A stretch of DNA of 64,000 bases from a virus (lineage: Duplodnaviria > Heunggongvirae > Uroviricota > Caudoviricetes > Demerecviridae). The stretch is taken from IMG/VR virus record IMGVR_UViG_2974604416_000001, positions 1 to 64,000 of that record; one strand, 5' to 3'. The notes below the pieces were generated by a model. That model saw only the letters and a list, made by a program, of their open reading frames with translations, had not been told where the DNA came from and made no database searches. The translations under genes were made by a program, and so were the position numbers. Shown in pieces: positions 15,181-58,848 of the stretch. Positions within the stretch are counted from its first letter, which is position 1. Each line of letters begins with the position of its first letter.

Positions 15181-15206
15181 AAAAAAGCTGGCCGAAGCCA
15201 GCTCAT
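15181..15206 (-). terminator. rho-independent terminator
   Basis: aaaaaa-gctggc-cgaa-gccagc hairpin with the T-run on the minus strand. Confidence 0.5.
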
Positions 15207-18850: not shown

Positions 18851-19658
18851 AATTCTTAATTTTTTCATAGCTCAAAGTTGCCAGGATCTGCCTGCCGTTT
18901 CTCCTGCGCCTCGGGGGTGTTTGACACCTACTCCTAGAGGTACGGGAAACCGCTAGGGAGAACTTCTAGTTGTACATCAGCAGAGCCAGATACTATGGGC
19001 ATAAGATTCAGACCAATTAGTGGGCTAAAACCTTCAAGGGTAATTTTTTCAGTAAGTGGCTTTGTATTTTTATGCTCCAGCAGTATGTTCTACTGCCGGG
19101 CCTACTCGCAAATTAGGTCGGGGGATACACAAAGGTTATCTTCCCTCTACCTCAGATAGGCAAAGTATGGGTTAAATACTGATTGGATCGTAAAGCTTGG
19201 CAGCTTGGAAAGCCCCTAAAGTCTAATAACAATCGTAGTATCAGTAGGTTTCACATACTTTTTAACTAACTCAATCTAGCTTCTAAAAGACTTGAAGTCG
19301 CTAGACATAAACACAGCTTTCTTATCTGGAAAGACTGGAGCGGCCAAACAGAGCTTAAAGTCTTTGATAACGTCCCAGCTATAAGGGTCATAGCCCAACT
19401 ATGCCAACAATAGCTAAGGTCTGCTATGAAACTACGGGGCTCCAAAAACTTCTCTGGTTACTGCGTAGCGGTCTACGTTATCCCAGATTGGGCCAGAAAA
19501 CAGAATCTAGCCAGAGCCATCGTACTACTCAAAAGGATAGCCAAACTAGGATACAGCTTCTAGTTGCTAAAAGATATTCCCTACTTGGGGGATTTCTGTC
19601 CCAAGTAGGGTATTGCTTTTAAGTAGTGTGCTTAGAGAAACAAGCAACTACTCACTCA

Positions 19659-19946
19659 TTAGACCTCCCGATTAATAAGCACGTCAGCTCTCAAGGCGTT
19701 GAGGGCGCTACTAAAGTCGGGGCCAGCACCTGTATGGATGGTACCGTATAGCTCCAATACTACTGTGCTAGTACCGATACAGTAGTAACCAACGTCACCC
19801 TCACCAGCTTCTGGTAGAGGTACTACAGGGTAACGTACATTACCAATCTTGAAAAACTCGGGAGCATCAAGGCGTGCACTGTAATCGCGATCACTCATTA
19901 GTAGAGTCCTCTGTGGTAGGAGCTGCTTCTTCTTTAGCAGGCTCAT
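19659..19946 (-). CDS. hypothetical protein
   Basis: 95-aa ORF. Confidence 0.35.
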   Translation of the reverse strand: MSLLKKKQLLPQRTLLMSDRDYSARLDAPEFFKIGNVRYPVVPLPEAGEGDVGYYCIGTSTVVLELYGTIHTGAGPDFSSALNALRADVLINREV

Positions 19947-23303: not shown

Positions 23304-23510
23304 TTATGCTTTCTTGATGAACTGAACAATCTCTGCTGGAGTACGCAAGACGGTACCGTCTTCCTTGATAAGAGCAGGAGCACTGCGAATGCCGTACTGT
23401 CTAGCAACCTCAATATCAGTTTCAATATTGAAATCAATATTCTTACTGACTAGCTCATTATGAAGTGCTACACAGGCTTTGCAATTTTCAGTCTTAAACA
23501 ATGTGATCAT
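23304..23510 (-). CDS. nrdH: glutaredoxin-like protein (NrdH-like)
   Basis: 68 aa with an N-terminal CKAC redox motif; lies in the RNR neighbourhood. Confidence 0.5.
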   Translation of the reverse strand: MITLFKTENCKACVALHNELVSKNIDFNIETDIEVARQYGIRSAPALIKEDGTVLRTPAEIVQFIKKA

Positions 23511-24309
23511 TTCTACCTCTCAAGTGACCTTCTGGACTACTAAATACGTGAATTAAAGTACTAAACTAACTCTGAACCCTTTAACTGCTGGGCTATTTTT
23601 GGTGCCTGTTGCCACAAAACAAGAATTACCCCAGAATAAACCCCACTTAGGTCATATAGTGGTGCCTAGTAAAAGTAGGCCTAACCAGCAGCTTCAAAGT
23701 ACTGGGTAGGTACTGGTAGGGGCTGCTAACTTAGATCATCAACTACTGAGAAGGCACCCTATAGGGACTTATCCTGCAAGTGGTTTATATATGTTACAGA
23801 GCTTTTATCGACACTGTAGTTGTTTAGTTGGTCTATTTTTACTGGCAACACCCCTTCTGAGGCTCTAATAGCTATAAAGTTATTAAGGAATTGTGGCTCA
23901 TATTCCCAAATTATAACCTGGTTCTAGTTTAGCTAGGTTAGCACACTAATGGCCTCCTAGCGCTACTAGGCAGGGAACTATCTCTCCCTTAGCTGCTCCT
24001 GCTTCTACATAACGGTTTCCGTACTTAGATTTTTAAATCCTTCCAGAATCTCCGTCTGGTAGGCTACTACCCAGTAACTAAGTACACCAAGCAGAATAGT
24101 ACCGGCACGAAGAGCTAGAGTTTTAGGGTCTTTTATATCCTGTAAAAGAAGCTCTATCATAGCTAGGATAGAGCTTTTTGGTGGCTGCTACGACACGGTA
24201 GTTTTCTCCGTAGGACGAACTCTCTCAATACTTAGTATATGATATAGCGCCACCAAAGTAAATAAGTTTTTAGGATAAAGACGAAAGCCTCGCATTGCGA
24301 GGCTCTTTA

Positions 24310-25137
24310 TTACTCCAGAGATTGTAGATAATCTAGGGGATTATCATACTCGCCAAACAGGCCATGCTTGGCCATGACGGCGTAAATGTGTTCTGCCTCT
24401 TCGTCTTCCAGGTCTACAGACAGAACCATTTCCTTGACGGTATCAATATGTACCAGCTCACAGTTTTCATATGCCCCAGCTTGCACAAACTGGATCCACA
24501 CACCATACGCTTCTTCTTTAAGAGCACCAATAACTGCACGAGCCCACATGGTGGTGAAGATACGGTTATTAATATCTTGCTCGTCTGGCAGCCAGATAGT
24601 GGCATTAGTGCTAAAGATTTGAGAAATTTCTTCCTTACTTAGGAAGGGCAGTTGATATTCCTCAAACAGTGCATAACACCAATCCAGTGAAGCCTGAACA
24701 TGCTTGATAGGCTCTTCGCCAGAACCCACGGAACCCATTGACATGTTATGTGACATGATAATGGTATTACGCACTGGTAGAATGACATCACCGCACAGCA
24801 TAGTCAGTGTGTGTGCTGAGCTAGCTCGACCATATGCTTCGGTGATTACTACAGCCTGACTGCGGGCAATAGCCGAAGATAGGTGGGATGCTGTGGTTAC
24901 GTAGCCACCATCACCATTTAGTACAATAGAGACTGTATCTTGGCTACCCGCAGCATACAGGGTATCCAGAAGGGGTACCAAAGGCTGATAATCTTCCAGA
25001 GCTGAAGGCATATACGCTCGATAGTTAGTTACACCCACACGTTGAGGGTCTTGGCTGGCTGTGATAATTACTGACGGGATAGTCTCAGGGCTTACCAGTG
25101 CATATTGCTGTTGGTCGTTGTTCAGTTTCTTCATCAC
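24310..25137 (-). CDS. ClpP/S49-like serine peptidase-like protein
   Basis: 275-aa ORF with a LNGDGGYV segment; weak assignment. Confidence 0.3.
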   Translation of the reverse strand: MMKKLNNDQQQYALVSPETIPSVIITASQDPQRVGVTNYRAYMPSALEDYQPLVPLLDTLYAAGSQDTVSIVLNGDGGYVTTASHLSSAIARSQAVVITEAYGRASSAHTLTMLCGDVILPVRNTIIMSHNMSMGSVGSGEEPIKHVQASLDWCYALFEEYQLPFLSKEEISQIFSTNATIWLPDEQDINNRIFTTMWARAVIGALKEEAYGVWIQFVQAGAYENCELVHIDTVKEMVLSVDLEDEEAEHIYAVMAKHGLFGEYDNPLDYLQSLE

Positions 25138-25802
25138 AGGTTATTCTCCACAAAGTTAACAATATTCTCTTTACCAAGAGACTTATCGTTTATAAAGGTA
25201 AGGTCAAAACTAACCCCATTCAGAGAGTTTTCTGAAATATGGTTATCTTTTACGGCTTCTTCTGGGTTTATGATATTCAACATGACAAAACCCATTGACT
25301 TTAGAAGTCGAAATTCGTCTGGGAATCTTGTGTCGTCTACAACAATGGTACAGCCTTCATTGTCTATAATAGACTACTGCATTAGGTCTACCCAAAATGT
25401 ATCCCTGATCCTCTGGCGAAAGAACTCTGTGCCCACTTTTTGCAGTAGCTCTCTACCCCTTATGGAGTCTACTATAAGTCCGGATTCCTGAGCCCAGGAT
25501 ACAAACTTATTTGTAGTCTAATCGACCTTAAGAGCCCCTAGCAGTTCTATCATAGCATACTCTACCTCTTGTCGAGAGATGCCCTTGGTCTTGACATAGG
25601 TGTTATCCTTGTCCCCATAAAGTGCTTCATGCACTACTTCTGGTTCGTTTACCTATGACAGGATTTCAGTTAGAAATATTTTCAGAGGCTAAGCAAAGCT
25701 GAGAATAACTGGGTCAGTCTCTGGATACTTATACAGGAACTACTTTGCTACGGCACTTTTGCCACAGCCCTTACTGCCAGATAGGCTAATTTTATTTGCC
25801 AT
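25135..25802 (-). CDS. deoxynucleoside monophosphate kinase (contains about 5 in-frame TAG)
   Basis: minus-strand frame MANKISLSGSKGCGKSAVAK-TAG-FLYKYPE...; P-loop and overall similarity to T4 gp1 dNMP kinase; boundaries approximate. Confidence 0.45.
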
Positions 25803-28516: not shown

Positions 28517-29638
28517 TTAAAGCCATTTATTTACGGCGTCTGCCAGTTCTTCTTCGGAGTCCATTCCAGCGGAAGCTACCCTATAAGTAAGAATCTGAGT
28601 TTCTTGCGGGGCAACTTGCAACTTACTAAGGTCTATGAACTTCTCTACCCAAGGAATTGGGTTAGACTTAGGTGTGTTAGCCAGAGCTTCTAGTTGAATT
28701 CCCAGAGGGGCTAAGGCGTTTTTGGTGACGTAAGAGCTATAGCGTTTTAGTATGTCTGCGCTTAAACCAACCAATGTAGTACCTTCTGGTAGTACATAGT
28801 CAGCCCAGTCATTTTCTATTTCCTTAATCTGAGTAAACAACTCAATTACGTACCCAGAATTTACTACTTCAGCGTATTCATCAGGCCACTCTTCTTTCAG
28901 AATTGCTAGAATTGCTAAATCTGCTTGTGCGTGTAAGAACTCATCTTTGATAATGAGAGTAAGTATATTAGCAATACCAGGGAGAATATCTTGGTTTGCC
29001 AAACCAAAGTTACATGCAAAAGAGGTGTAGAATAGAACCTACTCAAGAGCGTATAGCGCGAAATATGCTTTTACAAGCAAGATTCGCAGATAGTACTCTA
29101 CCTCTTTTAGTTTCGGGAGGCTGTATGTTTCTTTGTTTTGCAGGTAGCTCAGTCCAAGACCGTACAATTCATCAAACACAGAGGAAACCTAGCTAACCCT
29201 ACGAGCCACAAAAGGATTATTGCGAATCTCGTTCTTGATAGCCTAATCAGCATCTGGCATTACTGACTTTATAATGTGAGTGTACGAGCGAGAGTGTAAA
29301 CTCTCAAAGTACCCAATCTGGATTAGCAAACCCTCCAGTTCTTCATTGGAGCACAGGGCCAGCAATACCATCCCAGGGATTCGTCCAGCAAGAGAATCCC
29401 CCAACACTTGGAACGCCAGATTTTTGATACACAGCTGCCTATTCTACTCGGAAAGTGTGGGCCACTGGGCAATATCCTTGTGAAGTGGTATTTCAGTTTC
29501 TAGCCAAAACTGGGAACGCTGCTTTAGGGCAAAGTCCTCAAGACTTTTATACTTTACTGTGGTATAGTCTTGGAGTCCCAGCTGCTCCCCAAGGAATAGA
29601 AAATCTTTTCCGTCTTTTTCTAGGTTTAGTAGATTCAT
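28517..29638 (-). CDS. nrdB: ribonucleotide reductase small subunit (contains in-frame TAG codons)
   Basis: N-terminal NrdB-like segment (ORF 29444-29638) and C-terminal segment (28517-29002) in one gene interrupted only by TAG; GGAGAAC RBS. Confidence 0.55.
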
Positions 29639-29995
29639 TTAGTTCTCCAAGTAATTATCTGTAAACGCCAGAGAAGAAAGGGTACTGAACCATGTCAGCA
29701 CCCCATTTCTCAAACTGCTCTTTATGTCGTTCATCAATCTCTACGACGTACCCGTACTTCCATACACCAGTCACTTTGGCAATCCAAGAGTACCCAAATA
29801 CTACCTAGTGAACTTGTCTGCCAATCATGTCTGTCATAGAGTGCAGCCCCCACCAGAACAGGATTCTTCCTTCATTGAAGAAGAAACAGAGCCTGTATCA
29901 GTGTTGCAGTAGTACATGGTCTTCAAACCGTAATGACGCGCCATCTACCAAAGACCCAGAAGAACCTTCATAGGAATCTTCTCGTCTGGGTAGTC

Positions 29996-32086
29996 CTAGT
30001 ACCTGTGATACTCGTTGGTACTGATTGCTTGAGTCATCCAACGCTGTACTACAGCCATAGCTTTAATATACTCGAACTGGTCAATATCATAAGCTACCTG
30101 ATAGCTAGACAGAGAAGTGAACTCTGTAGCTTTAGGGGCTACTGTCACAATAACGTTTCCACCAGAACGTTTGGTAGTTACGATAGAGCGAATGGGTTCA
30201 ACACCATTAGTTGCTCCTAGCAGCACTGAGGAGGATTCCCCAGGCATACAGGCCGTGAATGTAGAGTTACGAACACCGTAGAGCTTCATTTCCTTTCGCA
30301 GAGCTTCCCAGTCTAACTTAGTTGGGGTAGTTACTAGAGAATCTGAGTTTTTGTTAATCAAGTCAACTGGCAGAATGCCATCACTCATTTTAGTACGGTG
30401 ATATAGCTCACAAGCCCCACGCTCTTTAGCCAGTCGGATAGAAGCCTTAACAATACTGTAAAGCATTTGTTCGCCCTACTCATTGATAAGGTCACGAGCT
30501 TCTTGCCCTTCGTATGACAGACCATTTTCTGCCAAGTATCCCGCTAAGTTAATAAAGCCAATAGCTATGTTTCTACGTTGCTTAGCCAGCTACTTAATGG
30601 CTGGGAATGGGATATCCTGTAGATCAATGATAGTATCAATGAACTTCACTAGAAGGTACATAGACTTATCCCAGTCAGTGATTCTACCAAGCACTGCGCC
30701 ACCGAGGTTACACAGACTTACTTCCCCATTTTTCGGGTCTGGGCTAGTTTCATACAGGCCCAGAGGACTGTTGAAAGGTTTGGTAGGTTGTACTATTTCC
30801 ATACACAGGTTAGACTGGCATACAGGGTCTTTAAAAAGCGACTAGGCATTGGTGTTATAAACATCCTGCCAGTACATCCTACCACTCTCCAGACGACGTT
30901 GCATATAGGTATGTACCAGTTCCGTTGCTGGGATATAGCCAGACTATTTAGCCTCGCTGTAAAGTTTACGGAATAGCTCCAAGTCGTCGCTATAGAAAGC
31001 TGCGTACATATCCTCATGTCCGTACAAGGACACTAATTTTACGTTTTCACCCTTCGCGTAGAGTTCGTGTAGGATTCTATTATCCTGTAGTGCGTAGTCT
31101 AAGAACTCAATACGCTTGTCTTCGGACACCCTTTGAGACTTTAGGTTCAACAAGTCTGCAATTTCTGGGTCAAAGAATGGGTAAAACACAGTAGCGGAGC
31201 CGCCCCTAGCTTGTTGAGTAAGGGACTTAGTAAGCCTGTCTACAGCCCTGTAGAACGGTAATTTTCCTGTGTGCTAGAAGCTACCGTCACGAACAGGATC
31301 TCCCACACTTCTAGTGGTACCAATCCAACCAATACCAGCCCTAGCAGCCGTCATCTTAAAGATAACAGAGTTTGCCACATCTAAGCTGTTGATAGAGTCT
31401 CCCGCCTGAATTAGGCAGCAAGAAGCGAATCCTCGGTCATGAGTTCTCAAGCCTAACAGAGGGGGGGTAGGTACGTTTACCTTTTGTAGGGAAAACTCAT
31501 CGTACAAGTCTAGTAGCTCTTGGATAGTCCAGTCATTACGTCTACCTTTAGCGTCTACCCCAGTAGCCATACACATACCCATATACATGAATTGTGGTGT
31601 TTCCAGGATAGATTGGGTGTTAATGTCCTTTAACAGGTACTTGTCTGCACACTGCTTTAGTCCACCGTAGGTAAACAACTCATCCCTAGAATGGTCAATA
31701 TGGGCTGCGAAGGCACACATCTCGTCTAGGGAATACATGGTTGAGAAGTGCTGCCATTTGTTAGTGGACTCCATATGTTTAACGAAAGCTAACAAATTAG
31801 GTGGATTATATTGCCCATGCACTGCTTTACGCAGTTGAGCTAGGTAGAGCTTTTTAGCTGGCACATCATAGGAGTATTCTTCACTGATTAGGGACTCTGC
31901 GGCGTTTATCAGACTCTTTTGCAGCTGCTCTGAGGTACACTCTTCTGGCAGATTACCAATTGCAATCCCAGCGATTGCTGCCCAAGAGGCTTCTTCACCC
32001 TAGCAGGCCCATTCAGCCCATTGATTTAACTTGATAGGGTCAAAGGCTTCTTTTGTTCCGTCTCTTTTTACGATTGTCTTGATCAT
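29996..32086 (-). CDS. nrdA: class Ia ribonucleotide reductase large subunit, 696 codons including 6 in-frame TAG
   Basis: ATP-cone N-terminus MIKTIVKRDG; QSNLCMEIVQPTKP matches E. coli NrdA QSNLCLEIALPTKP; NSTFTACMPGESSS and TNGVEP motifs; all ORF pieces share one frame separated only by TAG at 32000-32002, 31274-31276, 30944-30946, 30842-30844, 30590-30592 and 30476-30478. Confidence 0.7.
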
Positions 32087-32857
32087 TTAAGTATCCAACT
32101 GATTTGGGGCTGGTAAAGATATCCCACTTCCCAAACAAAAATAGCATAATTAACAGCGGAGGAAGCACCGTCATCAATATCGTCTTTTAGACACTTGATT
32201 CGGTATGAGAATATATCAACATGCTTTAGCTGGCCTACAGTAGAGAAGAATTTACCTCTGGCTTGGGAGGTTAAAAAGTCTAGGCGTAGTAGCATGATAA
32301 CTTTTCCACCCTTAGTGCCCCTAAGCAAATGTAGAGCATGCTCTACGTATTTCTGTGCCTGCTTATATGGAGGGTTTGTTATAATGGTTGTTACTGGTTC
32401 ACCGTAGTACATAAAGGGTAGTTTTTCTGTATTAAAGAAGTCTACTACCTCTGTAGGGAAGCCTCTGCTGTTTATATAGCCATAGTCGTAGATGTCTGAG
32501 GAGTATACTGAGAAACCCTATTCCTCCAGTGGGGTAGAAACTTTTCCCGTACCAACTGAGGGCTCCCAGAGTATCTCTCCAGTATTTAGGTACTTTAAAG
32601 CATGTTGTACGAAATCTGGTGGAGAAGTGTAGAAGTCTAGTGCCTACACATCACTTCTACGGATAGTATTAGCACTGGCCATGGGTGCCTGCCTTGCGAA
32701 TTTCAAATCCGTGTTTTACTAACTCACTAGTGACTGCTTCTAGGGGTAGATGATATGCTACTGGGCCTATGTACTCTTCTGCTATTTCTCGGATTTCCTT
32801 AGCAGACACAAATTCTCCGTTTAGTGTATAATGAATCATGACTCTGGATCCTCTCAA
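32083..32857 (-). CDS. DNA amino-methyltransferase (TAG-containing)
   Basis: motif IV ITNPPY in the downstream piece; N-terminal piece 32669-32857 lies upstream. Confidence 0.45.
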
Positions 32858-32904: not shown

Positions 32905-33702
32905 TTAATCCCAGAAATCAACAAAGAACTCTGCGGTCTCTGAGCGCACGGACTTAAGCAGTTCTATTACAGCTACTGGCTTACGTTCGTATGTTTCAAG
33001 CTTTTCAAGCAGCTCTACCAGAGGAGAGTCACCGGGAAGGTCACACTGCTTCTAGTCACCAGTAAGCACTAGCTTACCAGAAGAACCTAGACGCTGAGTT
33101 AAGCACTTTAGTGCCTCCCTAGACAGGTTCTGCGCTTCGTCCGCTAAAACAACAGTAGGGATATGACCACCCAGAGTTCTACCGCGCATGTGCTCTACGG
33201 CCAGAACTTCAATAGCCTCTGTTTCTACTAGTTCCTTTAGTTTGTTAGGGTTTACGTAATAACTGAACCCATCAAAGTATGGAGCAATCCAGGGCTTCAT
33301 CTTCTCGTAGAGGGAGCCTGGTAGAGAACCTAGACTCGGGCCAAGCGGTACGTTAGGACGAATTAGGATAATTTTTCCGATCTTACCTTCTAGGAGCTGT
33401 TGGATGTAGTACGCAGATGGCAGGAAAGTTTTACCTGTACCAGCTGGGCCAATACCTACAACCACTGAAAAGTTTTTCAGGGTATTCAAATACTTACGCT
33501 GCTCGTCATTCTTGGGAGTAAGTTCGCGTGGCGCTCTTACATCCTGTTTCTTACTACCATAGCTGGCAGGGAAAGAAGTGACGTTATTATGGCTACTATG
33601 GGCCGGGCCTGCCTACTCGTCTGTATTCAGAGCTCCTTGGCGTGCAAGACGACGAAGCTCTTTACGAGAAAGACGTTGGGGTTCCGCAGCTGGTTTTGTC
33701 AT
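32905..33702 (-). CDS. phoH: PhoH-like ATPase (one in-frame TAG at 33052-33054)
   Basis: Walker A GPAGTGKT; conserved motif reads VLTGD-TAG-KQCDLPG (the GDxxQxDLP PhoH motif), continuing to a TAA at 32905. Confidence 0.65.
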
Positions 33703-35715: not shown

Positions 35716-38124
35716 TCATAGTGCAGCTACGGTTGGGTACTGCTTCTGCAACTTACCACAAGAGTAGTCGAAGGAACCACCGTCCTCGGAGTCAGAATCA
35801 ACGCCCATAGGCGCCCCAGGGATCATTAGTCCACGGTCTTTCTGAATGTTACGTACAACAAGCTCCAAATACTCTTCCACACATGACTCATGAACTTCTG
35901 CTACTACCGAGTCATGAACCATACAAAGGATTTGAGCGTCGAGCTTACGTGCATTAATCTCTGCTTCTGCGTCAATAGCCCCCAGCAGCAGGATATCAGA
36001 AGATGCCCCTTGGATGATGGCATTAAACCCAGAACGCAGCTCTTCACCGATAACACCACGGTCACTAGAGGTGATGTTACGTAGGCGACGCTTACGGCCA
36101 AAGTGGCTGTAAATGAAGCCGTGGTTCAGAATCTGATTGTGGCACTCAGTAATCCACTGCTTCAAACGAGGGAATCGCTTGAAGTACACAGCGATGTATT
36201 CTTCTGCCTTTTCCTTGGTGCAAGGAACAAATGGTTCACCAGTTTTCAGGCTTTGTTCCAGAAGCGCTTCGTTAACTGCCTGCGCAACTTTAGCAGGGCC
36301 AGAACCGTACAAGATACCGAAGGTGATCGCTTTAGCGGCTTGACGCAGTGCTGGGAACAGCTTCTTAACTTCCTGTGGCTCACAGGACAAACCAAACACC
36401 ATGTGCGCGATGTTACTGTGGAAGTCAGGATACTTAGCTGGGTCTCTGGTCATGTTGATAAAGACTTGTTGTAGGCCCTTATCTCCAGACAGGGCAGCAG
36501 CCACCCAAACTTCCGCAGTGGTCATATCCACCGCTACGATTCTGTACCCTTCTCTTGCCTTAATACAGCCCTTGACGAGTGCGTCATCACGAGGAAGCTG
36601 TTGCAGGTTCAACGTACCACTGGAGGATAGACGACCAGAGGTTGTGGTGTGCAAGTGGAAGCCAGTACGTAGACGACCATCGAGGTCTACGTGATCCAGT
36701 GCTTTCTCGATGTAGGTGTTTAGCAGCTTAGAGAACTTACGGTACTCTAGGATTGCTTTAGCAATACTGGAATCTTGGTCTGATGCCAGTTTTTCCAAAG
36801 CTTCTGCGTTGGTTGAGTCTTGCTTGGTATCAGTCATGATACCAGTCGGTGTCAACCCTTCGTAATCAAACAGCAGTGTGCGCAGTTGAACAGGAGAGGC
36901 TGGGTTAAACGCTGAACCTTTGTCAAGTTCGTATCTGTTTACACTGTCGAACTGGTAGATTCGTTCTTGTGCTTCACGAATTTTTTCTGATACTACGGCA
37001 CTTGCTTCTTTAAGTCGAGAAACGCTGAAAGGTACACCACGAGATTCGATGCGCTGCAAGAAGCGGTTGCCTGGAATCAAGATGTTGGTGTAAAGAGAGT
37101 TTAGCTGTGGATTTTTACGAATAAGCGGCAAGAACTTATTGTGCAGACGCAGAGTAGCATCAGGGTCTTTTGCCGCGTAGACCTTAAGGATGTCCCAAGG
37201 GATGAGGTCGTAAGTAAAATCCTCTTTCTTGACATTATGCAGTGTGCAGTACGACTTTTTAAATTCTTCCAGCTCTAGGTCATAGTCACCCAAGTCAGTG
37301 TAGTCGATGGCCAAAGACTTCAAACCATGCGTACCAGTACGTTCGTCAAGGGTATAATGCTGCAACATGGTATCATGCATACGGTTTTCATCGTATGCCT
37401 TGTTAAAGTCGATACCGAAATGGTACTCAAACCAGTGTTGGTCAAACTTCAAGTTATGAAACACAATGTCCGCCGGAGAGTCAAAAATTTGCTGCACCAG
37501 ACCAATAAGCTTGGTATCAAACAAATCCGCATGGATATACCGGCCATAGCCCGGAGTGTCACAGAAGCACAAGCCTAGTGGGTAGCCTTTGCGGGCATAC
37601 AATGCTGTGGTTTCCGAGTCCATACCAACTGCCGGACTTTTACCGGACATGACATTTTGCACAACTTGACTAAGGTAGCTTTCCGCTTCCTTGTAGTCAG
37701 TGATACCTTCCCAGCTGCCTTCTGCTTTTGTTTGGCCAGAAACCAACAACTGACGGATCTTGGAAATGGTTTTTTCCATTACCGGTTTGTTCTCTGGTCG
37801 GAAAGAGAGAACAGCCGGAGAAATAGACGCAATAAACTTTGCGTTAGCCCAGGCGTCCTTGGGAGGGGCAATAAGTCCAGTGTAATCTGTTACCGAGGTA
37901 ACTCGGCTATACTCTTTCAAAGCCTCAGAACCTACCAGAATAGTGAAATCGTACTCCATTGGGTTAAACTGGATGTCAATGTTCTTCTTGGTCGGCTTCT
38001 TAATAGAAGGGTCAGAACATAGATGGTAAACATCTACTGGGATAGTCCCATTGAAGTAAATGTTAGAATAGTTCTGTCGGTTGGGGCTTTTATCTACTAC
38101 GGCAATTTTAGGTACTTTGGTCAT
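35716..38124 (-). CDS. pol: DNA polymerase I family with 3'-5' exonuclease domain
   Basis: about 800-aa intact ORF; exo motifs (GMDSETT...) and PolA palm motifs (VHDSVVAEV, ITFGILYGSG); TGA stop; zero in-frame TAG. Confidence 0.85.
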   Translation of the reverse strand: MTKVPKIAVVDKSPNRQNYSNIYFNGTIPVDVYHLCSDPSIKKPTKKNIDIQFNPMEYDFTILVGSEALKEYSRVTSVTDYTGLIAPPKDAWANAKFIASISPAVLSFRPENKPVMEKTISKIRQLLVSGQTKAEGSWEGITDYKEAESYLSQVVQNVMSGKSPAVGMDSETTALYARKGYPLGLCFCDTPGYGRYIHADLFDTKLIGLVQQIFDSPADIVFHNLKFDQHWFEYHFGIDFNKAYDENRMHDTMLQHYTLDERTGTHGLKSLAIDYTDLGDYDLELEEFKKSYCTLHNVKKEDFTYDLIPWDILKVYAAKDPDATLRLHNKFLPLIRKNPQLNSLYTNILIPGNRFLQRIESRGVPFSVSRLKEASAVVSEKIREAQERIYQFDSVNRYELDKGSAFNPASPVQLRTLLFDYEGLTPTGIMTDTKQDSTNAEALEKLASDQDSSIAKAILEYRKFSKLLNTYIEKALDHVDLDGRLRTGFHLHTTTSGRLSSSGTLNLQQLPRDDALVKGCIKAREGYRIVAVDMTTAEVWVAAALSGDKGLQQVFINMTRDPAKYPDFHSNIAHMVFGLSCEPQEVKKLFPALRQAAKAITFGILYGSGPAKVAQAVNEALLEQSLKTGEPFVPCTKEKAEEYIAVYFKRFPRLKQWITECHNQILNHGFIYSHFGRKRRLRNITSSDRGVIGEELRSGFNAIIQGASSDILLLGAIDAEAEINARKLDAQILCMVHDSVVAEVHESCVEEYLELVVRNIQKDRGLMIPGAPMGVDSDSEDGGSFDYSCGKLQKQYPTVAAL

Positions 38125-38169
38125 ATACTCAGGTCTCCTTAAACCTCTGTCCAATCAATCTCATCAATA

Positions 38170-39002
38170 AACTTCTTCAAGTAGTCTACCTCAGGCTTAC
38201 TAAGTCCGCCTGGGTCTCCGCCTTGTGGTAGTATATGGTTCTACACATATACTCTAAAGTGCTTAGATAGCACTTTTGATAGGTTCTGAGCAGCAGCATT
38301 ACCTGCGTCATCATTATCCATCAATATCACTACTTTTTTCGTATCTGCCGCAACTAAAGGTAGGCACTTTTGGTCAACTGTTCTATGTGTAACAGTTGAG
38401 GCACCAAATACCTAAGTCACGTTAGACACCCCCTTGTCCATAAGGTTGGCAACGTCAAATATGCCTTCCACTAGAATAGTTACTCCATTACTCTGCACAG
38501 CAGGGTAGAAGGGTATTTTTGCACCATCTGGGTAGGCTAAATACTTCGGCTTTAAGTCACTATACATAGAACGCTAGATTACTGCGCATAGGTTGCCTGT
38601 TACCAAGTCTGTAATTGGGAAACATAGGCGCCCCTCCCAGTTAGAGTGGGTGAACGCTTCTAATTTCTTGTAGGTATCCTACGATATATCTCTGTAGGTC
38701 TACGCAAAAGGCTCAATGGACGGTGGCAGGGTTATGCCCACGGAGAAAATGTTGAGCTCTTGTAATTTTCTCTTGAACTGTCGTATCTTTGGGGAAACTT
38801 TTGGTAGTTCCACACCCAAGTATTCATGAATAGACTTACCTTTGAAACCACACGCATAACAGTGGTATACTCCTAGCTCTTTGTCAATGTACATTGATGG
38901 TGAAGAGTCTTCGTGTTCTGGATTTAAGCACAGCACTAGGTAGTCCTTACCTTTTTCCTTAAAAGGAATGCCACGCTGCTCTAGTAGCTCTTTTACATTC
39001 AT
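38170..39002 (-). CDS. DnaG-like DNA primase (TAG-containing)
   Basis: N-terminal CHC2 zinc finger CLNPEHEDSSPSM...YHCYACG; frame continues through TAG at 38700-38702, 38679-38681 and 38574-38576; 3' boundary approximate. Confidence 0.55.
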
Positions 39003-39267
39003 ATTACCTCACTTTCCAATATTATACACCTAAAAAGGCCTGTGATCAAGATTTATAACAAAAAAGGAGATGATTTTACTCATCTCCTTGTTCTTCTTGC
39101 GGCACTTTGACTATGCTTTGCGGGATAATTTTCATGTAGTCCCACGACATATGGGTCACGAAGTTGATACCTGCTGGGAGGTTACGCAACTTAGCTACTG
39201 TAAGTGTCAGAACTGAGCCAGATTTATTAATGGTGAACTACATATCCACCTAGTCTAACAAACCTTT

Positions 39268-40434
39268 CTACATACGAGTGGCTCCGTTTTCATCTACTTG
39301 ATACGGTGAAATAACCAGAACTTTCTGCTTCCTGGCTATTGTGTTCTTAAGCATAGTTGCTAACTGTGTTTGAACTTTCCAATCCAGCCTATCCAGAGTT
39401 TTTACGCCCTCAAGTATAAGCTGGTTTACATAGTCAACAATTACCGTGGTTACTAGTCCAGGGTATTTTGCCTTTAGTGTCGTTAGTACTAAATCAATGG
39501 TGGAGATTTTTAGGTTCCTATCATCAATTACTACTATCGGTAAAATCTGTTTTAGGTGTTGCTTGAAATACGTTTCGTGGCTTTGGAATAGGTCTCTCGT
39601 AGGAGGCTCTTCTAGTGCTTTTAGTTGATCCATTAAGTAATCAAAACCACCTTCGTACTGTGCGGCTTGGGAAAGCTACAACTGTACTTGTTCAAAGTGG
39701 TTCATAGTACCATTACGTAGTGCAGAGAATCTGACACCACTGGCAGTCTACCAAAATCTCTGGTATGTTTCCTCAGCAGTCATTTCGATAGTACAGTACG
39801 GGGCTATTTTACCAACCATCCAATGGTGGGCACAGATGTTAATACAAAGTGCTGATTTACCAACTCCTCGATATCCACCTAGAAGAATAAGCTCTTCTTC
39901 CTTACCTCCCAGAAACTCCATATCCCAGCGCTCTGATAACCCAAGGGTTGAGAACTAGGTTTGGGTTTCTTCCTCCGCACGAAACATTGAAATTTCGTTA
40001 CCGTAGAATACTTTGTCAGAACTGTCTATCTCCTCTTCCACTAGCATCTAAATAGCCTAGAGTTCTTCCACTATCTCCTGTGGCCCTAACAAGGGTAAGT
40101 TGTCTGCAAACTTGTCTAACTTCTCGATAGCGATATGCTGGATGTGCTCGGCTTCTAGTTGCTCCAACTATAGTGAGATTGGTACGTCCGGTAGCTCCAC
40201 CTTTTCAAGTGCTAGTACCTAATGCAGGACGGAAGAGTTTCTGGAGTTAAACAGCTTTAACTCTTCAAAAGATGGGACTCTGGCATGTGCTTCGTAGAAG
40301 TTATTTACTGATCGATATACGCTGGAGAATAGGCCCGAGAAGTACTACGATTTCAGCTTTTCCATCTAAGCTAGCTTTTGCTCCTAGTCTGTAGACTATA
40401 GCAAAAGCCCTAGAGTTGTGCTTTGTAGTGACAT
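39268..40434 (-). CDS. DnaB-like replicative helicase (about 11 in-frame TAG)
   Basis: Walker A GYRGVGKSALCI and H3-like VIVDYVNQLIL; start ATG at 40434 with an AAGGAGC RBS. Confidence 0.55.
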
Positions 40435-40460
40435 CTAAGCTCCTTGAGTAATAAAACAAA

Positions 40461-40497
40461 ACAAAAAAGGAGGCACTTAGGCCTCCTTCTTTATAGC
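40461..40497 (-). terminator. rho-independent terminator
   Basis: aggaggc-actta-gcctcct hairpin followed on the minus strand by ttttttgttttgtttt. Confidence 0.6.
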
Positions 40498-40515: not shown

Positions 40516-41253
40516 TTACTCAGCAGCTTCTTTAGCCTTCTTGGCGTCAGCAGCAGCCTTTTTAGCTGCTCCATCATAGTCAACAGCGCTCAGGCCACGA
40601 CGGGTCAGCATGGACTTAACGGAACGCTCGCCCTTGCCAGTTGCTTCAACCAGTTGTGCAACGGTCATTTCAGCAACGTCCAAACCTTCGAACTAATCGG
40701 CAGAAGCCTTACGTGCGCTAGCTTCCTGCTTCGGAATAGCAGCGATGCGACCTTCGCGGTGCAGGGACAGAGCCTTACCACGAATCTGCGGCAGGGTACG
40801 ACCCAGAGCAGCAGCAACTGCGTCAATAGAAGCGCCTTCGTTGGCCATTTCTACGAACACTGCTTCTTCTTGTTCGGTATAAGTACGAACTACTTCCTTC
40901 TTCGGAGTAGCCTTAACCAGAGAGGTCAGTTCCTCAGACAGAACCTTACCTTGTACGGTACGGGCATTAACTTCGAAGGACAGTTGACCAGCCAGTTCAG
41001 CGTAGGTAAACACACCCGGATTAGCGTTCAGGACGCTATGCAGTTCAGCAGTCTGCTCAGGAGACCATGCGGTCTTTTGGGCTGACAGAGACTCAACAGT
41101 ATAACCAGCCTTACGCAGCTTAGCTGCTACAGAGCGAGAAGTAGTGTCCAGCTTCTCAGCCAGGTCAACAACAACTTCTTTGCTTACGCTTGCCATACCG
41201 TCAACAGTGCTGAACAGGGTATTGGTCATTTCTTCGTTCCACTTCTTAGCCAT
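40516..41253 (-). CDS. alanine-rich protein in a GC-rich island (one in-frame TAG at 40693-40695)
   Basis: start MAKKWNEEMT with a GGAGAGA RBS; frame passes the TAG and ends in TAA at 40516; local GC about 55 percent. Confidence 0.45.
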
Positions 41254-42025
41254 TTGTATTTCTCTCCACAAGCTCTTTAATAGAGCCAATAGTTATTCCT
41301 AGTCCTACAGCTTTCTTATAGGAGCTGGATGTTGTTTTAGATTCATCTTCGCATACGAGGAAGTTAGTTGCCTTAGTTACTGTATCTTTTACAGTGTAAC
41401 CTAAAGAGGTTAAGTAGGTTTTCGCTTCGTCGCGGTTTTTAAAGTCATTCAAAGAACCAGTAATTACTATGACTAAGCCGTTATTAATAGGTGTTACATT
41501 GATTGGGGCTTTAGTACTAGGAACTACTCGGTCTTCTAGGTCGAACACCCAAGGATTCTCAATAGCAAATTCTTGGAGTAAACCGGTCAACCTAGGGGTT
41601 ACTACGTCCTTCATAGTGAAGGCTTGTTCCAAAGAACTGGCTTGTGCTGCTAAAGTTTTTGAAGCAGTAGCACCAAAGCCAGTAATGGCTAAGCCTTCTA
41701 GGAACTTGTCCATTGGAATCTTGGTCGTCTTGTCTACCAACTCTTTGTGTAGCTTATTAGCCATGAGGTCTGAAAAACCTGCATTTATAAAGTCTTCGAC
41801 AGTCAAACCAAGAAATTCAGGTATCGTTGATACCGAAATCTTTTCCAATGTTGCTGGGCCAAATCCTTTTACGGATAGAGCTTTGCAAAACTTTTCTAGT
41901 CGCTTGCCAGTCTGAGCTGCGCAACCAGCTTTGTTCGGGCATTTCAGTGTGACCGCAATCGGTGACACTACCCGTTCCAACAGTGTACCACAGCTTGGAC
42001 ACTGTGTTGGCGGAATAATCTTCAT
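41246..42025 (-). CDS. ligB: NAD-dependent DNA ligase, C-terminal subunit (Zn finger, HhH, BRCT)
   Basis: CPSCG...CPN zinc finger, HhH region and BRCT-like tail; own RBS GAAGGAGC; separate frame from ligA. Confidence 0.7.
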   Translation of the reverse strand: MKIIPPTQCPSCGTLLERVVSPIAVTLKCPNKAGCAAQTGKRLEKFCKALSVKGFGPATLEKISVSTIPEFLGLTVEDFINAGFSDLMANKLHKELVDKTTKIPMDKFLEGLAITGFGATASKTLAAQASSLEQAFTMKDVVTPRLTGLLQEFAIENPWVFDLEDRVVPSTKAPINVTPINNGLVIVITGSLNDFKNRDEAKTYLTSLGYTVKDTVTKATNFLVCEDESKTTSSSYKKAVGLGITIGSIKELVERNTNG

Positions 42026-42040
42026 TGAAGCTCCTTCACA

Positions 42041-42071
42041 CTTTGTACATACAGTATATCAAGTTTTGGGG
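42041..42071 (-). promoter_or_regulatory. conserved promoter-RBS cassette upstream of ligB
   Basis: reverse complement reads TTGATATACTgtatgtacaaagtgtGAAGGAGc; an additional TTGACG-17-TATACT promoter lies at about 42120-42150. Confidence 0.45.
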
Positions 42072-42203
42072 AAGTGAGCAATAACTATTTCACATTGAGG
42101 AGAACCCAATCCTCTAAGGTGGTGCTCTCCAAAGCAGATAAACAGTATAGCCCTAAAGAACGTCCACGTCAACCGCAGTTTAAAATGCTAACGGTAGTGT
42201 GGG

Positions 42204-43169
42204 TTAATCCGCTCTTCCAACAATAGTTGGGATAATGTCCCCAGCTCGAATAACCGCTACCTTACACCCAATTTCCAGACCTAGGGTCTCGATATACGTG
42301 ATGTTGTTCAAAGTAGCCCGGCTAATTGAAGTTCCCTTGATATCTACAGGTTCCAAAATGGCTACTGGAGTGACTCTGCCAGAAGAACCTACTTGCCACA
42401 CTACGTCCAGTAAGGTTGTCTCTACAGGCGGTTCGTCCTCTTTCACAGCATAAGCTCCGCGTGGGAACTTAGATGTGTAACCCAGTTCTGCAAACACCTT
42501 GTTATCATCTACTCGATAGACGACACCATCCTGTGGTGCGGTGTCAGCGTAGGGTCTATGGAGGGCTACATCAAATCCTTGGGCGTCTAGAATTTGCATA
42601 TCAGCGCTGTAGCTGTCTGTCATTGCTGGTACTAAGCCGTAAGCAATGAAAACAACACCATACTCTTCAAATACTCTCTTGGCTTCATTAAGGTCTTTTT
42701 CAGTAACTAGCTTACCAGAAACAATGTTTCTTGAGTTGGCAGAGGCTTTGGTAGCTACCACTTCCCCAGGTACTTGGACAATACCTTTCGCACCAAAAAA
42801 TCTATGAGGGATTTGGAGCAATTTGAGTTTATCAGTTACGTCCTGACCCTTCTCCCCGTCACCACGAGTGGTAGCACGAGCTAGGTGCCCGTCGAGGTAA
42901 ACCAGCTCAACAGCATTACCATCATACTTTGGGGAATCAACTAGCTGCTTGCCTGCGCAAGAGGTAGGAATCTTGTCGCCCCGCTTCGGATATACTTTTT
43001 GCAGAGAATACATCGGGTATGCCAGTGGGATGTCACCAGTAGGCCCAATACTTTTTTCTGCATTGTAGTACATAACCAAAGCATCATACTGCTCGTCAGA
43101 CAACTCTGGGGTGCCTTTGGCGTACAGCTCCTGATGGTGCTTAATTAGCTTTTCGATTTCTAAATTCAT
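42204..43169 (-). CDS. ligA: NAD-dependent DNA ligase, N-terminal adenylation subunit
   Basis: KxDG adenylation motif in SPKYDGNAVELVY; ends in TAA, 180 nt and one frame shift away from ligB (two-gene arrangement as in T5). Confidence 0.75.
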   Translation of the reverse strand: MNLEIEKLIKHHQELYAKGTPELSDEQYDALVMYYNAEKSIGPTGDIPLAYPMYSLQKVYPKRGDKIPTSCAGKQLVDSPKYDGNAVELVYLDGHLARATTRGDGEKGQDVTDKLKLLQIPHRFFGAKGIVQVPGEVVATKASANSRNIVSGKLVTEKDLNEAKRVFEEYGVVFIAYGLVPAMTDSYSADMQILDAQGFDVALHRPYADTAPQDGVVYRVDDNKVFAELGYTSKFPRGAYAVKEDEPPVETTLLDVVWQVGSSGRVTPVAILEPVDIKGTSISRATLNNITYIETLGLEIGCKVAVIRAGDIIPTIVGRAD

Positions 43170-53609: not shown

Positions 53610-53635
53610 GAGATTAAAGATAGGAGAAGTATGTA

Positions 53636-58759: not shown

Positions 58760-58848
58760 GGATGTTTTGAGCAGTATGGTGAGCTTCAGCGGGCTGTAAC
58801 CCCGTGGTCTCTAGGGGCCTGTAGGTTCGAATCCTACAACATCCACCA
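58760..58848 (+). tRNA. tRNA-Tyr(GUA), class II
   Basis: acceptor GGATGTT/AACATCC, anticodon loop CUGUAAC, T-arm GTAGGTTCGAATCCTAC, encoded CCA. Confidence 0.6.

Follow-up and report, generated by a model that had tools for sequence, protein, structure and literature searches.

Stop-codon-recoded phages using code 15 (TAG to Gln) include crAss-like phages (Crassvirales) and Lak megaphages (Ivanova 2014; Yutin 2021; Borges 2022; Peters 2022, with proteomic validation). In these, in-frame TAG codons are found in conserved genes of a phage whose host uses the standard code, a tRNA(CUA) is encoded by the phage, and TAG is enriched in late structural and lysis genes and absent from the earliest genes. 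Assignment of UAG to alanine has been described for the mitochondria of some chlorophycean green algae (Hayashi-Ishimaru 1996), a small organellar genome with its own translation system and no competing RF1-type factor for UAG. Alanine-inserting amber suppressors, tRNA-Ala(CUA), are reported to have been made in the laboratory (Hou & Schimmel 1988; McClain & Foss 1988; Normanly et al. 1990) on the logic that AlaRS ignores the anticodon, so that changing the anticodon of a tRNA-Ala suffices, and the T5 record notes that T5 tRNA-Ala with a CUA anticodon is an effective amber suppressor. A phage-derived tRNA, tRNA_CUA-151, with G3:U70 and A73 was shown to insert Ala at UAG in E. coli extract (Seki et al. 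2025 preprint, 10.1101/2025.10.30.685624); it comes from a metagenomic scaffold and has an atypical D and T arm, no genome-level evidence was given, and its authors state that its biological relevance is unclear.

The DNA analyzed here, a window of 64,000 nucleotides, is 100% identical to bases 1-64000 of Aeromonas phage AhSzw-1 (MG676225; Demerecviridae, Shenzhenvirus). As in the code 15 phages, conserved genes are interrupted by in-frame TAG, a tRNA(CUA) is present, and the apparent coding density under code 11 is low, rising from 55.8% to 82.7% for this genome once TAG is read as sense. It differs from them in that the amino acid is inferred to be Ala rather than Gln, the tRNA has AlaRS rather than GlnRS identity elements, many replication (early) genes are also recoded, no release-factor gene is present, and the lineage is a cultured T5-like siphovirus of a gamma-proteobacterium rather than an uncultured gut phage. 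It differs from the algal case in that a virus would impose the code inside a standard-code bacterium, and from the laboratory suppressors in that its tRNA is natural, fixed and, in this view, essential for hundreds of codons, with an anticodon loop that has additionally been adapted (A37-A38). The tRNA is unrelated in sequence to tRNA_CUA-151, and here the whole genome, its relatives and the codon statistics show the reassignment in use. The genome organization is that of bacteriophage T5, with homology and synteny for 52 genes, a large tRNA cluster, a pre-early dmp/A1/A2 block, a split NAD-ligase, and nrdA, nrdB and nrdD, but T5 uses the standard code and has no tRNA(CUA). The assemblies carry no terminal repeat, and two-step DNA injection is assumed by analogy with T5. 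The features of the window are collected in the table below.

Features of the AhSzw-1 window, with coordinates on the 64,000-nucleotide stretch
Position	Strand	Feature	Codons	In-frame TAG	Remarks
15203..15775	-	Multi-pass membrane protein ORF	190	18 (9.5%)	Hydrophobic segments survive if TAG is Ala and collapse if TAG is Gln
18865..19659	-	Conserved ORF of unknown function	264	15	TS3 ortholog has 14 TAG, 8 of them shared
23507..24295	-	T-type holin	262	16 (6.1%)	PF11031 positions 10-233 of 233, E=6e-23; PHROG 860 holin
25134..25802	-	dNMP kinase	222	5	
28517..29638	-	nrdB	373	4	TAG200 lies in LYALE-x-VLFYT, where TS3 and T5 both have Ala
29834..32086	-	nrdA, class Ia ribonucleotide reductase large subunit	750	8	TAG at codons 29, 271, 381, 415, 499, 537, 697, 714; stop TGA
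32083..32706	-	DNA methyltransferase-like gene	207	2	
32905..33702	-	phoH	265	2	VLTGD-TAG-KQCDLPG; stop TAA
33792..35261	-	D10-like SF2 helicase	489	16	GFGKTIT-TAG-LAIA
35716..38154	-	DNA polymerase	812	0	TAG-free early class
38139..39002	-	DNA primase	287	5	
39076..40476	-	DnaB-like replicative helicase (T5 D6 ortholog)		15	
41246..43169	-	NAD-dependent DNA ligase subunits B and A (41246-42025 and 42204-43169)		0	TAG-free class
47040..49967	-	Origin-binding/helicase protein	975	0	TAG-free class
51609..53636	+	nrdD	675	2	TAG at codons 4 and 667
54484..56652	+	ORF of unknown function	722	37 (5.1%)	Most TAG-rich long gene in the window; no Pfam or PHROG match
58760..63841	+	Cluster of 31 tRNA genes			Contains the tRNA(CUA)
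60691..60765	+	tRNA with anticodon CUA (amber decoder)			Anticodon loop CUCUAAA
60772..60846	+	Standard phage tRNA-Ala(UGC)			6 nt downstream of tRNA(CUA); also G3:U70 and A73
61597..61670		tRNA-like gene			Anticodon loop of 6 nt

The observation that prompted this work, made in a sequence-only reading, was that nrdA and other essential genes run straight through in-frame amber codons, and it was confirmed. The minus-strand frame from 32086 reads as NrdA, and the six internal stops up to codon 696 are all TAG (32000-02, 31274-76, 30944-46, 30842-44, 30590-92, and 30476-78). However, codon 697 (29996-98), which had been taken as the end of a 697-codon gene, is itself TAG, and the frame continues through an eighth TAG (29945-47) to TGA at 29834-36. 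Chance was excluded, as TAA and TGA together occur at about 4% of codons in minus-strand frames, so that 750 codons without one has a P of about 5e-14. E. coli NrdA aligned from residue 5 to 749 (E=2.7e-137), a span that includes the QSNLCMEIVQPTKP block. The N-x-C-x-E catalytic motif, the redox Cys pair, the YY dyad and the C-terminal Cys pair of R1 were represented by SNLCMEI, FASCCLI, SLCNL, KTMYY and CSGGGC, all aligned with the E. coli blocks; the last two lie downstream of TAG697, so read-through is required for function. TS3 NrdA (749 amino acids, no TAG) aligned end to end at 77% identity over 750 amino acids.

The other genes named in the sequence-only reading (phoH, the SF2 helicase, primase, DnaB-like helicase, dNMP kinase, nrdB, methyltransferase and codon 4 of nrdD) were all verified as interrupted by TAG, although the DnaB-like helicase has more TAG codons than the approximately 11 claimed. 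Since greedy longest-ORF calling selected some antisense ORFs, a homology-supported set of 152 genes was used for genome-wide counts; these contain 601 TAG and end in TAA (112) or TGA (40). Of these genes, 90 lie in the window, with 199 TAG in 42 of them and stops of TAA (66) or TGA (24). Homology spans up to these stops, although the ORFs were defined by TAA and TGA and the result is therefore partly by construction. In-frame TAA or TGA at comparable frequency had been named beforehand as an outcome that would count against recoding, and this was examined in orthologs of relatives, where TAG outnumbered TAA/TGA by 453 to 16 in TS3 and 409 to 14 in Mru1. All of the TAA/TGA cases lie in N-terminal over-extensions of the ORF calls, in the last codons, or in dubious short ORFs. 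Nucleotide-level codon pairing had suggested in-frame TAA in TS3 TerL and SbcC, but protein-level alignment showed this to be alignment misregister. The term genome-wide, used in the sequence-only reading, overstates the pattern, as 48 of the 90 window genes have no TAG.

Fragmentary annotation in the deposited records might suggest that the TAGs are not translated and represent sequencing or assembly artefacts, pseudogenes of a defective phage, or sites bypassed by another recoding event. This is effectively refuted by the comparative data. Five independently isolated and sequenced phages from China, Korea, India and elsewhere share hundreds of TAG positions, and 188 of 398 aligned TAG sites are shared with TS3 although the two genomes are only about 70% identical in DNA. 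Furthermore, the interruptions are exclusively TAG, homology is uninterrupted in one frame, a dedicated and perfectly conserved tRNA(CUA) is present, and the phages are viable lytic isolates that plate and lyse normally. That TAG is sense in this exact genome was already predicted automatically (Cook et al. 2024, Table S1), where MG676225 is listed under table 15, a call made with a gene finder that offers only codes 4, 11 and 15. What appears to be unreported is the meaning of the codon: a literature search, which covered few subscription journals, found no description of genome-wide TAG=Ala in a phage.

The identity of the amino acid was deduced first from aligned orthologs. In an empirical-matrix likelihood analysis against T5 (267 sites), Ala was best, with Ser at -66 and Gln at -118 log-likelihood units; against TS3 (224 sites), Ala was again best, with Ser at -19.5 and Gln at -87, and the ranking was the same using window genes only. 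The probability of Ala in T5 opposite TAG was 0.26, compared to 0.39 opposite GCN codons and 0.044 opposite Gln codons. Gln was 5% (T5) and 9% (TS3) of the residues opposite TAG. In TerL, TAG sits at columns that are Ala in 110/110, 101/110, 98/110, 95/110 and 89/110 standard-code homologs, and no TAG sits in a Gln column. The DnaB-like helicase shows the same pattern, its TAG columns being Ala in 20/22, 18/22, 15/22, 13/22 and 12/22 distant homologs. The membrane protein ORF with 18 TAG supports the same conclusion, since it keeps its hydrophobic segments only with Ala-like residues and Gln would place many polar residues in predicted membrane helices; flanking hydropathy of TAG sites genome-wide was uninformative. 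The Ala deficit relative to T5 orthologs tracked TAG density best of all 20 amino acids (r=0.41, p=0.005), but this signal is modest and confounded by the GC difference and is treated as supporting only. In nrdA itself the TAG sites are variable positions (E, S, T, G, I, T, S and A in TS3) and say little about identity.

Glutamine, as assigned to this genome in the automated call, is therefore very unlikely, although some data are consistent with it. Between close relatives the commonest TAG substitution is CAG (11 and 10 of about 27-31 changes), and TAG<->CAG is the most frequent single-step exchange between AhSzw-1 and Mru1; this is expected for a single C/T transition but is also what a synonymous TAG=Gln would give. 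In addition, 28 of 29 phage tRNA(CUA) tested in E. coli extract gave Gln, and GlnRS recognizes CUA anticodons. Serine is also very unlikely. It is the second most frequent residue opposite TAG (12-17%), is only 19.5 units behind Ala against TS3 and 6.7 using window genes only, and TCG is one mutation away from TAG. However, conserved columns at TAG are Ala with Ser only as a minority, and the Ser excess is what the mutational path GCN -> TCN/TCG -> TAG and Ala/Ser exchangeability would produce.

The tRNA data bear on both alternatives. The tRNA(CUA), which the sequence-only reading did not link to the finding, was detected with ARAGORN and was the best-scoring tRNA of the cluster (Rfam, 69.5 bits). 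It has the alanine identity elements G1-C72, G2-C71, G3:U70, G4-C69 and A73, as opposed to the GlnRS set (a weak U1-A72 pair, G73, and G2-C71/G3-C70), and the G3:U70, A73 and G2-C71 elements are also present in the neighboring tRNA-Ala(UGC). It is a 75-nt class I tRNA without the long variable arm that bacterial SerRS requires. It is 100% identical in five Shenzhenvirus genomes, and its nearest other phage tRNAs are mostly annotated tRNA-Ala. BLAST against E. coli genomes gave only weak hits to plasmid or phage tRNA-Arg and tRNA-Asn, which was uninformative. The second odd tRNA-like gene of the cluster is not an opal suppressor, as TGA is never in frame and its anticodon loop has 6 nt.

TAG use is graded by gene class. 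It is absent from pre-early dmp/A1/A2, early genes fall into two discrete classes, one of which is TAG-free, and TAG is densest in late structural and lysis genes, as in the code 15 phages, making up 31% of Ala codons in late genes if TAG is counted as Ala. A few short ORFs in the FST-equivalent region do contain TAG. nrdA and nrdB are atypical, lineage-specific TAG users (0 TAG in TS3). Evolutionary rate did not explain per-gene TAG density (rho -0.07), and Pfam and PHROG searches gave nothing for several TAG-rich ORFs. The most abundant virion proteins avoid TAG (MCP, 2; major tail protein, 3), while other late genes have 3.5-5.6%. This last pattern, together with a modest +4 purine bias at sense TAGs, could suggest mixed or leaky decoding, in which UAG is read mostly as Ala but with substantial RF1 termination or near-cognate or mischarged insertion (Gln, Lys, Tyr), so that TAG-rich genes yield heterogeneous or deliberately attenuated products and TAG acts as a throttle. 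The host has RF1, and a search for a phage release-factor homolog using E. coli RF1, with PrmC as a side probe, found nothing below E=0.1; no RF1-neutralizing factor was found. Only about a quarter of TAG sites align with Ala in T5, and a best-fit mixture leaves 16-34% non-Ala-like signal, so some ambiguity in decoding cannot be excluded. As a full account, however, leaky decoding is very unlikely, as genes with 37-84 TAGs, including essential tail, terminase and helicase genes, would give essentially no full-length product unless read-through exceeded about 95% per codon, and TAGs at catalytic-motif alanines (the Walker B region of TerL) need a defined small residue.

Taken together, we propose, with a probability of roughly 0.87, that AhSzw-1 and its genus use a variant code in which UAG is a sense codon for alanine and UAA and UGA remain the only terminators. 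The interpretation in the sequence-only reading was thus partly supported: TAG is sense, the fragmented genes fuse into full-length NrdA, NrdB, PhoH, DnaB-like, primase and other proteins, and TAA and TGA alone terminate, but its suggested tables 15 (Gln) and 16 (Leu) give the wrong amino acid and the recoding is not uniform. The analysis demonstrates directly the presence of the tRNA(CUA) in the early-region cluster, the use of TAA or TGA, both read by RF2, at the ends of the supported genes, so that the phage does not need host RF1, and the gradation by gene class; the correspondence of TAG with Ala is demonstrated statistically. Charging of the tRNA by host AlaRS, which does not read the anticodon, and insertion of Ala at UAG are inferred from sequence and identity rules, with indirect support from tRNA_CUA-151. 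It is likewise inferred that the A36-A37-A38 loop fits the MiaA modification motif of efficient U-starting-codon readers, and that RF1 must be outcompeted or neutralized during infection by an unidentified agent, since genes with 37-84 TAGs need more than about 94-97% read-through per codon. The purpose of the gradation is also inferred: in T5 the pre-early genes are expressed before the tRNA genes enter the cell, and the likely reading is that full expression of TAG-rich genes is tied to availability of the phage tRNA. This timing model does not explain why the DnaB-like helicase and primase are TAG-rich while DNA polymerase is TAG-free.

Evidence of generality was obtained from a partial metagenome/MAG scan, which gave at least 97 Ala-type tRNA(CUA) genes with at least 52 distinct sequences. 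Contigs carrying them gain ORF coverage specifically when TAG is read as sense, TAG-rich ORFs recur in unrelated contigs, and TAG falls at signature alanines, at PhoH DE-A-QNT and at GG-A-GTFSDGKL, in two unrelated lineages. A 24-TAG ORF encoded a low-complexity protein and was unusable for residue inference, and an actin-like ORF had no PDB hit. A wider reading, which remains tentative, is that TAG to Ala is a distinct, recurrent and so far unrecognized phage code, silently mistranslated as Gln by current pipelines, that arises easily because AlaRS ignores the anticodon and is present in the cultured Shenzhenvirus genus and in many unrelated uncultivated phages. In this view its depth in these T5-like phages (up to 31% of Ala codons in late genes and 84 TAGs in one gene) would require an undiscovered way of neutralizing host RF1, and the discrete TAG-free and TAG-using gene classes would form a translational switch tied to arrival and expression of the phage tRNA after two-step DNA injection.

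The finding would add a natural code (UAG = Ala) for viruses of bacteria that, to our knowledge, is not among the NCBI translation tables. Every deposited record of this genus examined here is fragmented under code 11, including a 2025 entry, and public protein databases contain these proteins with Gln where, on this reading, Ala belongs, which affects annotation, structure prediction and phylogeny. These phages are proposed for aquaculture therapy, and correct gene content matters for safety assessment. A naturally efficient Ala-tRNA(CUA) and any anti-RF1 factor would be useful parts for genetic code engineering. Whereas the phage codes validated so far belong to gut phages that are hard to culture, these are easy-to-grow lytic isolates on Aeromonas hydrophila, so that how a phage overrides host RF1, whether recoding times late and lysis gene expression, and what it costs become directly testable. 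Finally, the case illustrates the easiest evolutionary route to stop codon capture, through a synthetase that ignores the anticodon.

The sequence was 100% identical, and in the same orientation, to bases 1-64000 of Aeromonas phage AhSzw-1 (MG676225 / NC_047950; Demerecviridae, genus Shenzhenvirus). The relatives found in the phage collection were AhSzq-1 (98% over nrdA), AhP_Mru1 (92%), and vB_AdhS_TS3 and Akh-2 (about 70%). All deposited records annotate the replication and structural genes as short fragments under code 11, and this includes the 2025 Mru1 record, which has 377 features.

The sequence-only reading had described nrdA (29996-32086) as a single frame with six TAG codons as its only interruptions. 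Translation from 32086 to 29996 on the minus strand gave an NrdA-like frame with six internal stops, all TAG, and the observation was confirmed. However, the codon taken as the terminator, codon 697, was itself found to be TAG, and the frame continues through an eighth TAG to a TGA, for a total of 750 codons. Escherichia coli NrdA aligned from residue 5 to residue 749 (E=2.7e-137). The stretch after codon 697 contains the KT(M/L)YY dyad and the C-terminal Cys pair of class Ia RNR, so a protein stopped at codon 697 would lack them. TS3 NrdA has no TAG at all and aligned end to end at 77% identity. With TAA and TGA together at about 4% of codons in these frames, a 750-codon frame free of both has a chance probability of about 5e-14. 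The other interrupted genes that had been named (phoH, an SF2 helicase, a DnaG-like primase, a DnaB-like helicase, dNMP kinase, nrdB, a methyltransferase and nrdD) were all verified.

Within the window, 90 homology-supported genes were found to contain 199 TAGs in 42 genes, and all 90 end in TAA (66) or TGA (24). Genome-wide, there were 601 TAGs in 152 genes. In the orthologs of TS3 and Mru1, the in-frame stops were TAG in 453 and 409 cases, respectively, against TAA/TGA in 16 and 14. The latter all lie in N-terminal overextensions of the ORF calls, in the last codons, or in dubious short ORFs.

That TAG is sense in this genome had been predicted previously. Cook et al. 2024 (PMC11210395) list MG676225 and MG676224 among the INPHARED genomes predicted by prodigal-gv to use table 15, with coding capacity rising from 55.8% to 82.7%, while the main text mentions only that recoding "appears sporadically" in Demerecviridae. 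Since that tool can choose only among codes 4, 11, and 15, the Gln assignment is a default and not an inference. The paper on the isolation of Akh-2 does not mention stop codons or suppression. No description of a phage genome using TAG as Ala was found in literature searches that did not cover the original AhSzq-1/AhSzw-1 paper (Arch Virol 2018). The nearest item was a 2025 preprint in which one of 29 phage tRNA(CUA) tested in E. coli extract inserted Ala, with its biological relevance described as unclear; the precedents cited there are chlorophycean mitochondria and allo-tRNAs.

To deduce which amino acid is encoded, all TAG-as-sense ORFs were translated with X at TAG and aligned to T5, which uses the standard code, and to TS3. 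Opposite 267 TAG sites, T5 has Ala 69 times, Ser 32 times, Lys 18 times, and Gln 14 times. Using substitution probabilities taken from the same alignments, Ala was the maximum-likelihood identity, with Ser 66 log units worse and Gln 118 log units worse. Against TS3 (224 sites where TS3 is not TAG), Ala was again the best, with Ser at -19.5 and Gln at -87. This ranking was also obtained with the window-only subsets. The probability of Ala in T5 opposite TAG was 0.26, compared to 0.39 opposite GCN-Ala codons and 0.044 opposite Gln codons. Where T5 and TS3 agree on a residue, Ala was the mode (9 of 24).

The assignment of alanine was further supported by conserved columns. The large terminase (TerL; 15 TAG), which lies outside the window, was aligned with 110 standard-code homologs, and five TAG sites fell in columns that are Ala in 110, 101, 98, 95, and 89 of the 110 sequences. 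One further site fell in an Ala/Gly column, one in a Lys column, and none in a Gln column. For the DnaB-like helicase inside the window, TAG columns are Ala in 20, 18, 15, 13, and 12 of 22 distant homologs, and TAG200 of NrdB is a conserved Ala. Two other results were deemed supporting evidence only. Ala showed the strongest composition deficit relative to T5 as TAG density rises (r=0.41, p=0.005), and a membrane ORF with 18 TAGs keeps its hydrophobic segments with Ala but not with Gln. In nrdA itself the TAGs sit at variable positions (E, S, T, G, I, T, S, and A in TS3); they are recent, lineage-specific acquisitions and are uninformative about identity. Both nrdA and nrdB, which carry 8 and 4 TAGs, respectively, in AhSzw-1 and are fragmented in Mru1, have none in TS3, and they are among only 5 of 89 orthologs that have TAG in AhSzw-1 and not in TS3. 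The gene on which the sequence-only reading was centered is therefore an atypical, recently recoded one.

Database proteins closely related to the TerL and DnaB-like helicase of AhSzw-1 carry Gln exactly at these Ala columns. There are 3 to 7 such Gln residues per TerL sequence, against 1 among 438 Gln in the conserved columns of standard-code homologs, and these proteins are therefore very probably table-15 mistranslations. They include near-identical TerL and DnaB-like proteins from Logan/ENA assemblies in the public protein collection (P0001-P0010 and P0121-P0128), with Gln at positions that are TAG in AhSzw-1 and invariant Ala in standard-code homologs. An environmental clade of related phages (contigs up to 121,920 bp) is thus probably stored mistranslated.

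The putative decoder is a tRNA with anticodon CUA within a cluster of 31 tRNA genes, and it is the best-scoring tRNA of the cluster under the Rfam model. Its acceptor stem is G1-C72, G2-C71, G3:U70, and G4-C69 with discriminator A73, exactly as in the adjacent tRNA-Ala(UGC). G3:U70 is the major AlaRS determinant, and AlaRS does not read the anticodon. The tRNA lacks both the long variable arm needed by SerRS and the U1-A72/G73 features used by GlnRS. Its loop, CUCUAAA, has the A36-A37-A38 motif of MiaA substrates, from which modification is inferred only. The gene is 100% identical in all five Shenzhenvirus genomes although those genomes differ by up to about 30% in DNA, and its nearest other phage tRNAs (76-79% identity) are mostly annotated tRNA-Ala. 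A deposited CDS, HOT04_gp089 ("hypothetical protein"), lies directly over the tRNA(CUA), tRNA-Ala, and tRNA-Pro genes and is almost certainly a spurious call; several other long ORFs in the cluster also overlap tRNA genes. A tRNA-like gene with a 6-nt anticodon loop (CUCAUC) and an imperfect acceptor stem was read by ARAGORN as (ca), (tca), or (tcgg) in AhSzw-1, Mru1, and TS3 and is called a "suppressor tRNA" in the Mru1 record. Since TGA is never in frame in supported genes, it is unlikely to be an opal suppressor. One Rfam tRNA match (41 bits, above the gathering score) was not called by ARAGORN and may be a degenerate tRNA or one of the tRNA-like stable RNAs known from T5.

The TAG density was found to vary with gene class. 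It was 0 in the orthologs of the T5 pre-early genes dmp, A1, and A2 (949 codons; also 0 in TS3), 12 per 1000 codons in early genes (56 of 117 genes), and 37 per 1000 in late genes (22 of 22), where TAG makes up 31% of all Ala codons. Short ORFs outside the window, in the region equivalent to T5 first-step-transfer DNA, contain 1 to 3 TAGs each and, if they are real pre-early genes, which is uncertain, would conflict with the idea that everything expressed before tRNA entry is TAG-free. The early genes split into two classes, as 37 of 69 are TAG-free against 10.4 expected under a uniform rate. The TAG-free class includes DNA polymerase (812 codons), the 975-codon origin-binding helicase, both ligase subunits, and the NAD-salvage enzymes, whereas the DnaB-like helicase, primase, D10 helicase, SbcCD, and the holin carry 2-6% TAG. 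One long block of genes is almost entirely TAG-free and includes an NAD+ salvage set; NMN adenylyltransferase and PnuC, elsewhere in the genome, are also TAG-free. By contrast, an ORF of 722 codons with 37 TAGs (5.1% of codons) sits among early genes next to the tRNA cluster. It is rich in Asn/Tyr/Gly/Ser and conserved in TS3, and it gave no Pfam or PHROG match.

Per-gene density was conserved in TS3 (Spearman 0.85, p=4e-26), although only 47% of sites are shared, and density did not correlate with protein divergence (rho -0.07). The most abundant virion proteins are TAG-poor (major capsid, 2; major tail, 3), while the tail fibre has 84 TAGs in 1676 codons. Sense TAGs are followed by a purine in 66% of cases, against 55% for other NNG codons (p=2e-7), and true stops are followed by T in about 49%. 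No release-factor homolog was found to be encoded.

To examine the distribution beyond this genus, a pattern for Ala-type tRNA(CUA) (GGGG ... YUCUAA ... GGUUCRA ... CUCCA) was searched. It found 3 genuine cases in IMG/VR and, in a partial metagenome scan together with a scan of bacterial genomes and MAGs, at least 97 tRNA(CUA) genes with at least 52 distinct sequences, most having the canonical tRNA-Ala D arm and some being in tandem. Many of the contigs carrying these genes gain ORF coverage specifically when TAG is read as sense. For the metagenome contigs L082 and L084, coverage rose from 0.19 to 0.88 and from 0.22 to 0.89, respectively, while TGA as sense gave 0.35 and 0.33; their ORFs hold 20 to 58 TAGs. 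These two contigs and three others (L122, L126, and L070), of 24-28% GC and with coverage rising from about 0.2 to about 0.9, carry two Ala-type tRNA(CUA) genes in tandem that differ in acceptor-stem sequence. In two lineages unrelated to T5-like phages, TAG coincided with signature alanines, namely, PhoH DE-A-QNT, L-A-YMRGR, and LAMAKA in one and GG-A-GTFSDGKL, L-A-VGHS, and LS-A-GI of an FAD protein in the other. An IMG/VR contig of 135 kb and 29% GC (L021; IMGVR_UViG_3300002494_000025), a phage with a very different base composition, carries a tRNA(CUA) clearly homologous to that of AhSzw-1 (same D arm and variable region), also next to a tRNA-Ala(UGC), and nearby a 1431-codon ORF with 24 in-frame TAGs. 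Two short contigs (L147 and L165) binned into a Bacteroidota MAG ("MAG: Phocaeicola sp. WFFMC_MAG_101") carry a tRNA(CUA) identical to that of AhSzw-1 and are probably misbinned Shenzhenvirus-like phage DNA. Four IMG/VR contigs have tRNA genes with anticodon UCU (Arg, AGA) but with a GGGG...CUCCA acceptor stem, i.e., G3:U70 and A73, which could be alanine-accepting AGA decoders, or the pattern match may be misleading.

Coordinates of the features discussed in the text (window positions unless another sequence is named)
Feature	Sequence	Position	Strand
nrdA	window	29834-32086	-
nrdA codon 697 (in-frame TAG)	window	29996-98	-
nrdA terminator (TGA)	window	29834-36	-
nrdA and nrdB	window	28517-32086	-
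nrdA and nrdB of TS3	L005 (TS3)	39101-42660	
DnaB-like helicase	window	39076-40476	
Almost entirely TAG-free block	window	200-14361	-
Nicotinamide phosphoribosyltransferase	window	200-1798	-
PRPP synthetase	window	2039-2833	-
MazG-like	window	2815-3102	-
722-codon ORF with 37 TAGs	window	54484-56652	+
Cluster of 31 tRNA genes	window	58760-63841	
Rfam tRNA match not called by ARAGORN	window	59398-59469	+
tRNA(CUA)	window	60691-60765	
HOT04_gp089, almost certainly spurious CDS	window	60705-61154	+
tRNA-like gene with 6-nt anticodon loop	window	61597-61670	+
Several other long ORFs overlapping tRNA genes	window	61757-63287	
Short ORFs equivalent to T5 first-step-transfer region	genome (L002), outside the window	109,549-110,700	
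tRNA(CUA) in Phocaeicola MAG contig	L147	334-405	
tRNA(CUA) in Phocaeicola MAG contig	L165	334-405	
tRNA with anticodon UCU	L013	112-182	
tRNA with anticodon UCU	L014	4744-4817	
tRNA with anticodon UCU	L016	10305-10376	
tRNA with anticodon UCU	L018	4636-4709	
tRNA(CUA)	L021	7073-7148	
1431-codon ORF with 24 TAGs	L021	770-5065	

The sequence analysis is considered to have shown that TAG is read through in hundreds of places, that the statistics indicate Ala, that a dedicated and perfectly conserved Ala-type tRNA(CUA) is present, and that all terminators are TAA or TGA, which RF2 alone can read. It is inferred, in the absence of protein-level confirmation, that host AlaRS charges the tRNA. It is also inferred that RF1 must be outcompeted or inactivated, by an agent as yet unidentified, because 37 to 84 TAGs per gene require more than about 94-97% read-through per codon for even 10% full-length product. 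The pattern of gene classes is inferred to reflect dependence on tRNA availability, as pre-early genes would precede entry of the tRNA genes if injection works as in T5, together with avoidance of a costly codon in the most highly expressed proteins; this does not account for the two early classes. The change of conserved GCN alanines to TAG, for which no route was deduced, needs at least two nucleotide changes.

The interpretation given in the sequence-only reading was thus partly supported, being right about the reassignment of TAG but wrong in proposing translation tables 15 or 16, and TAG as sense is not new for this genome. What sets this case apart from the recoding already predicted is the alanine identity deduced from sequence, the Ala-type suppressor tRNA, the discrete gene classes, and the apparent spread of the same solution in uncultivated phages, and it comes with a tractable culture system.
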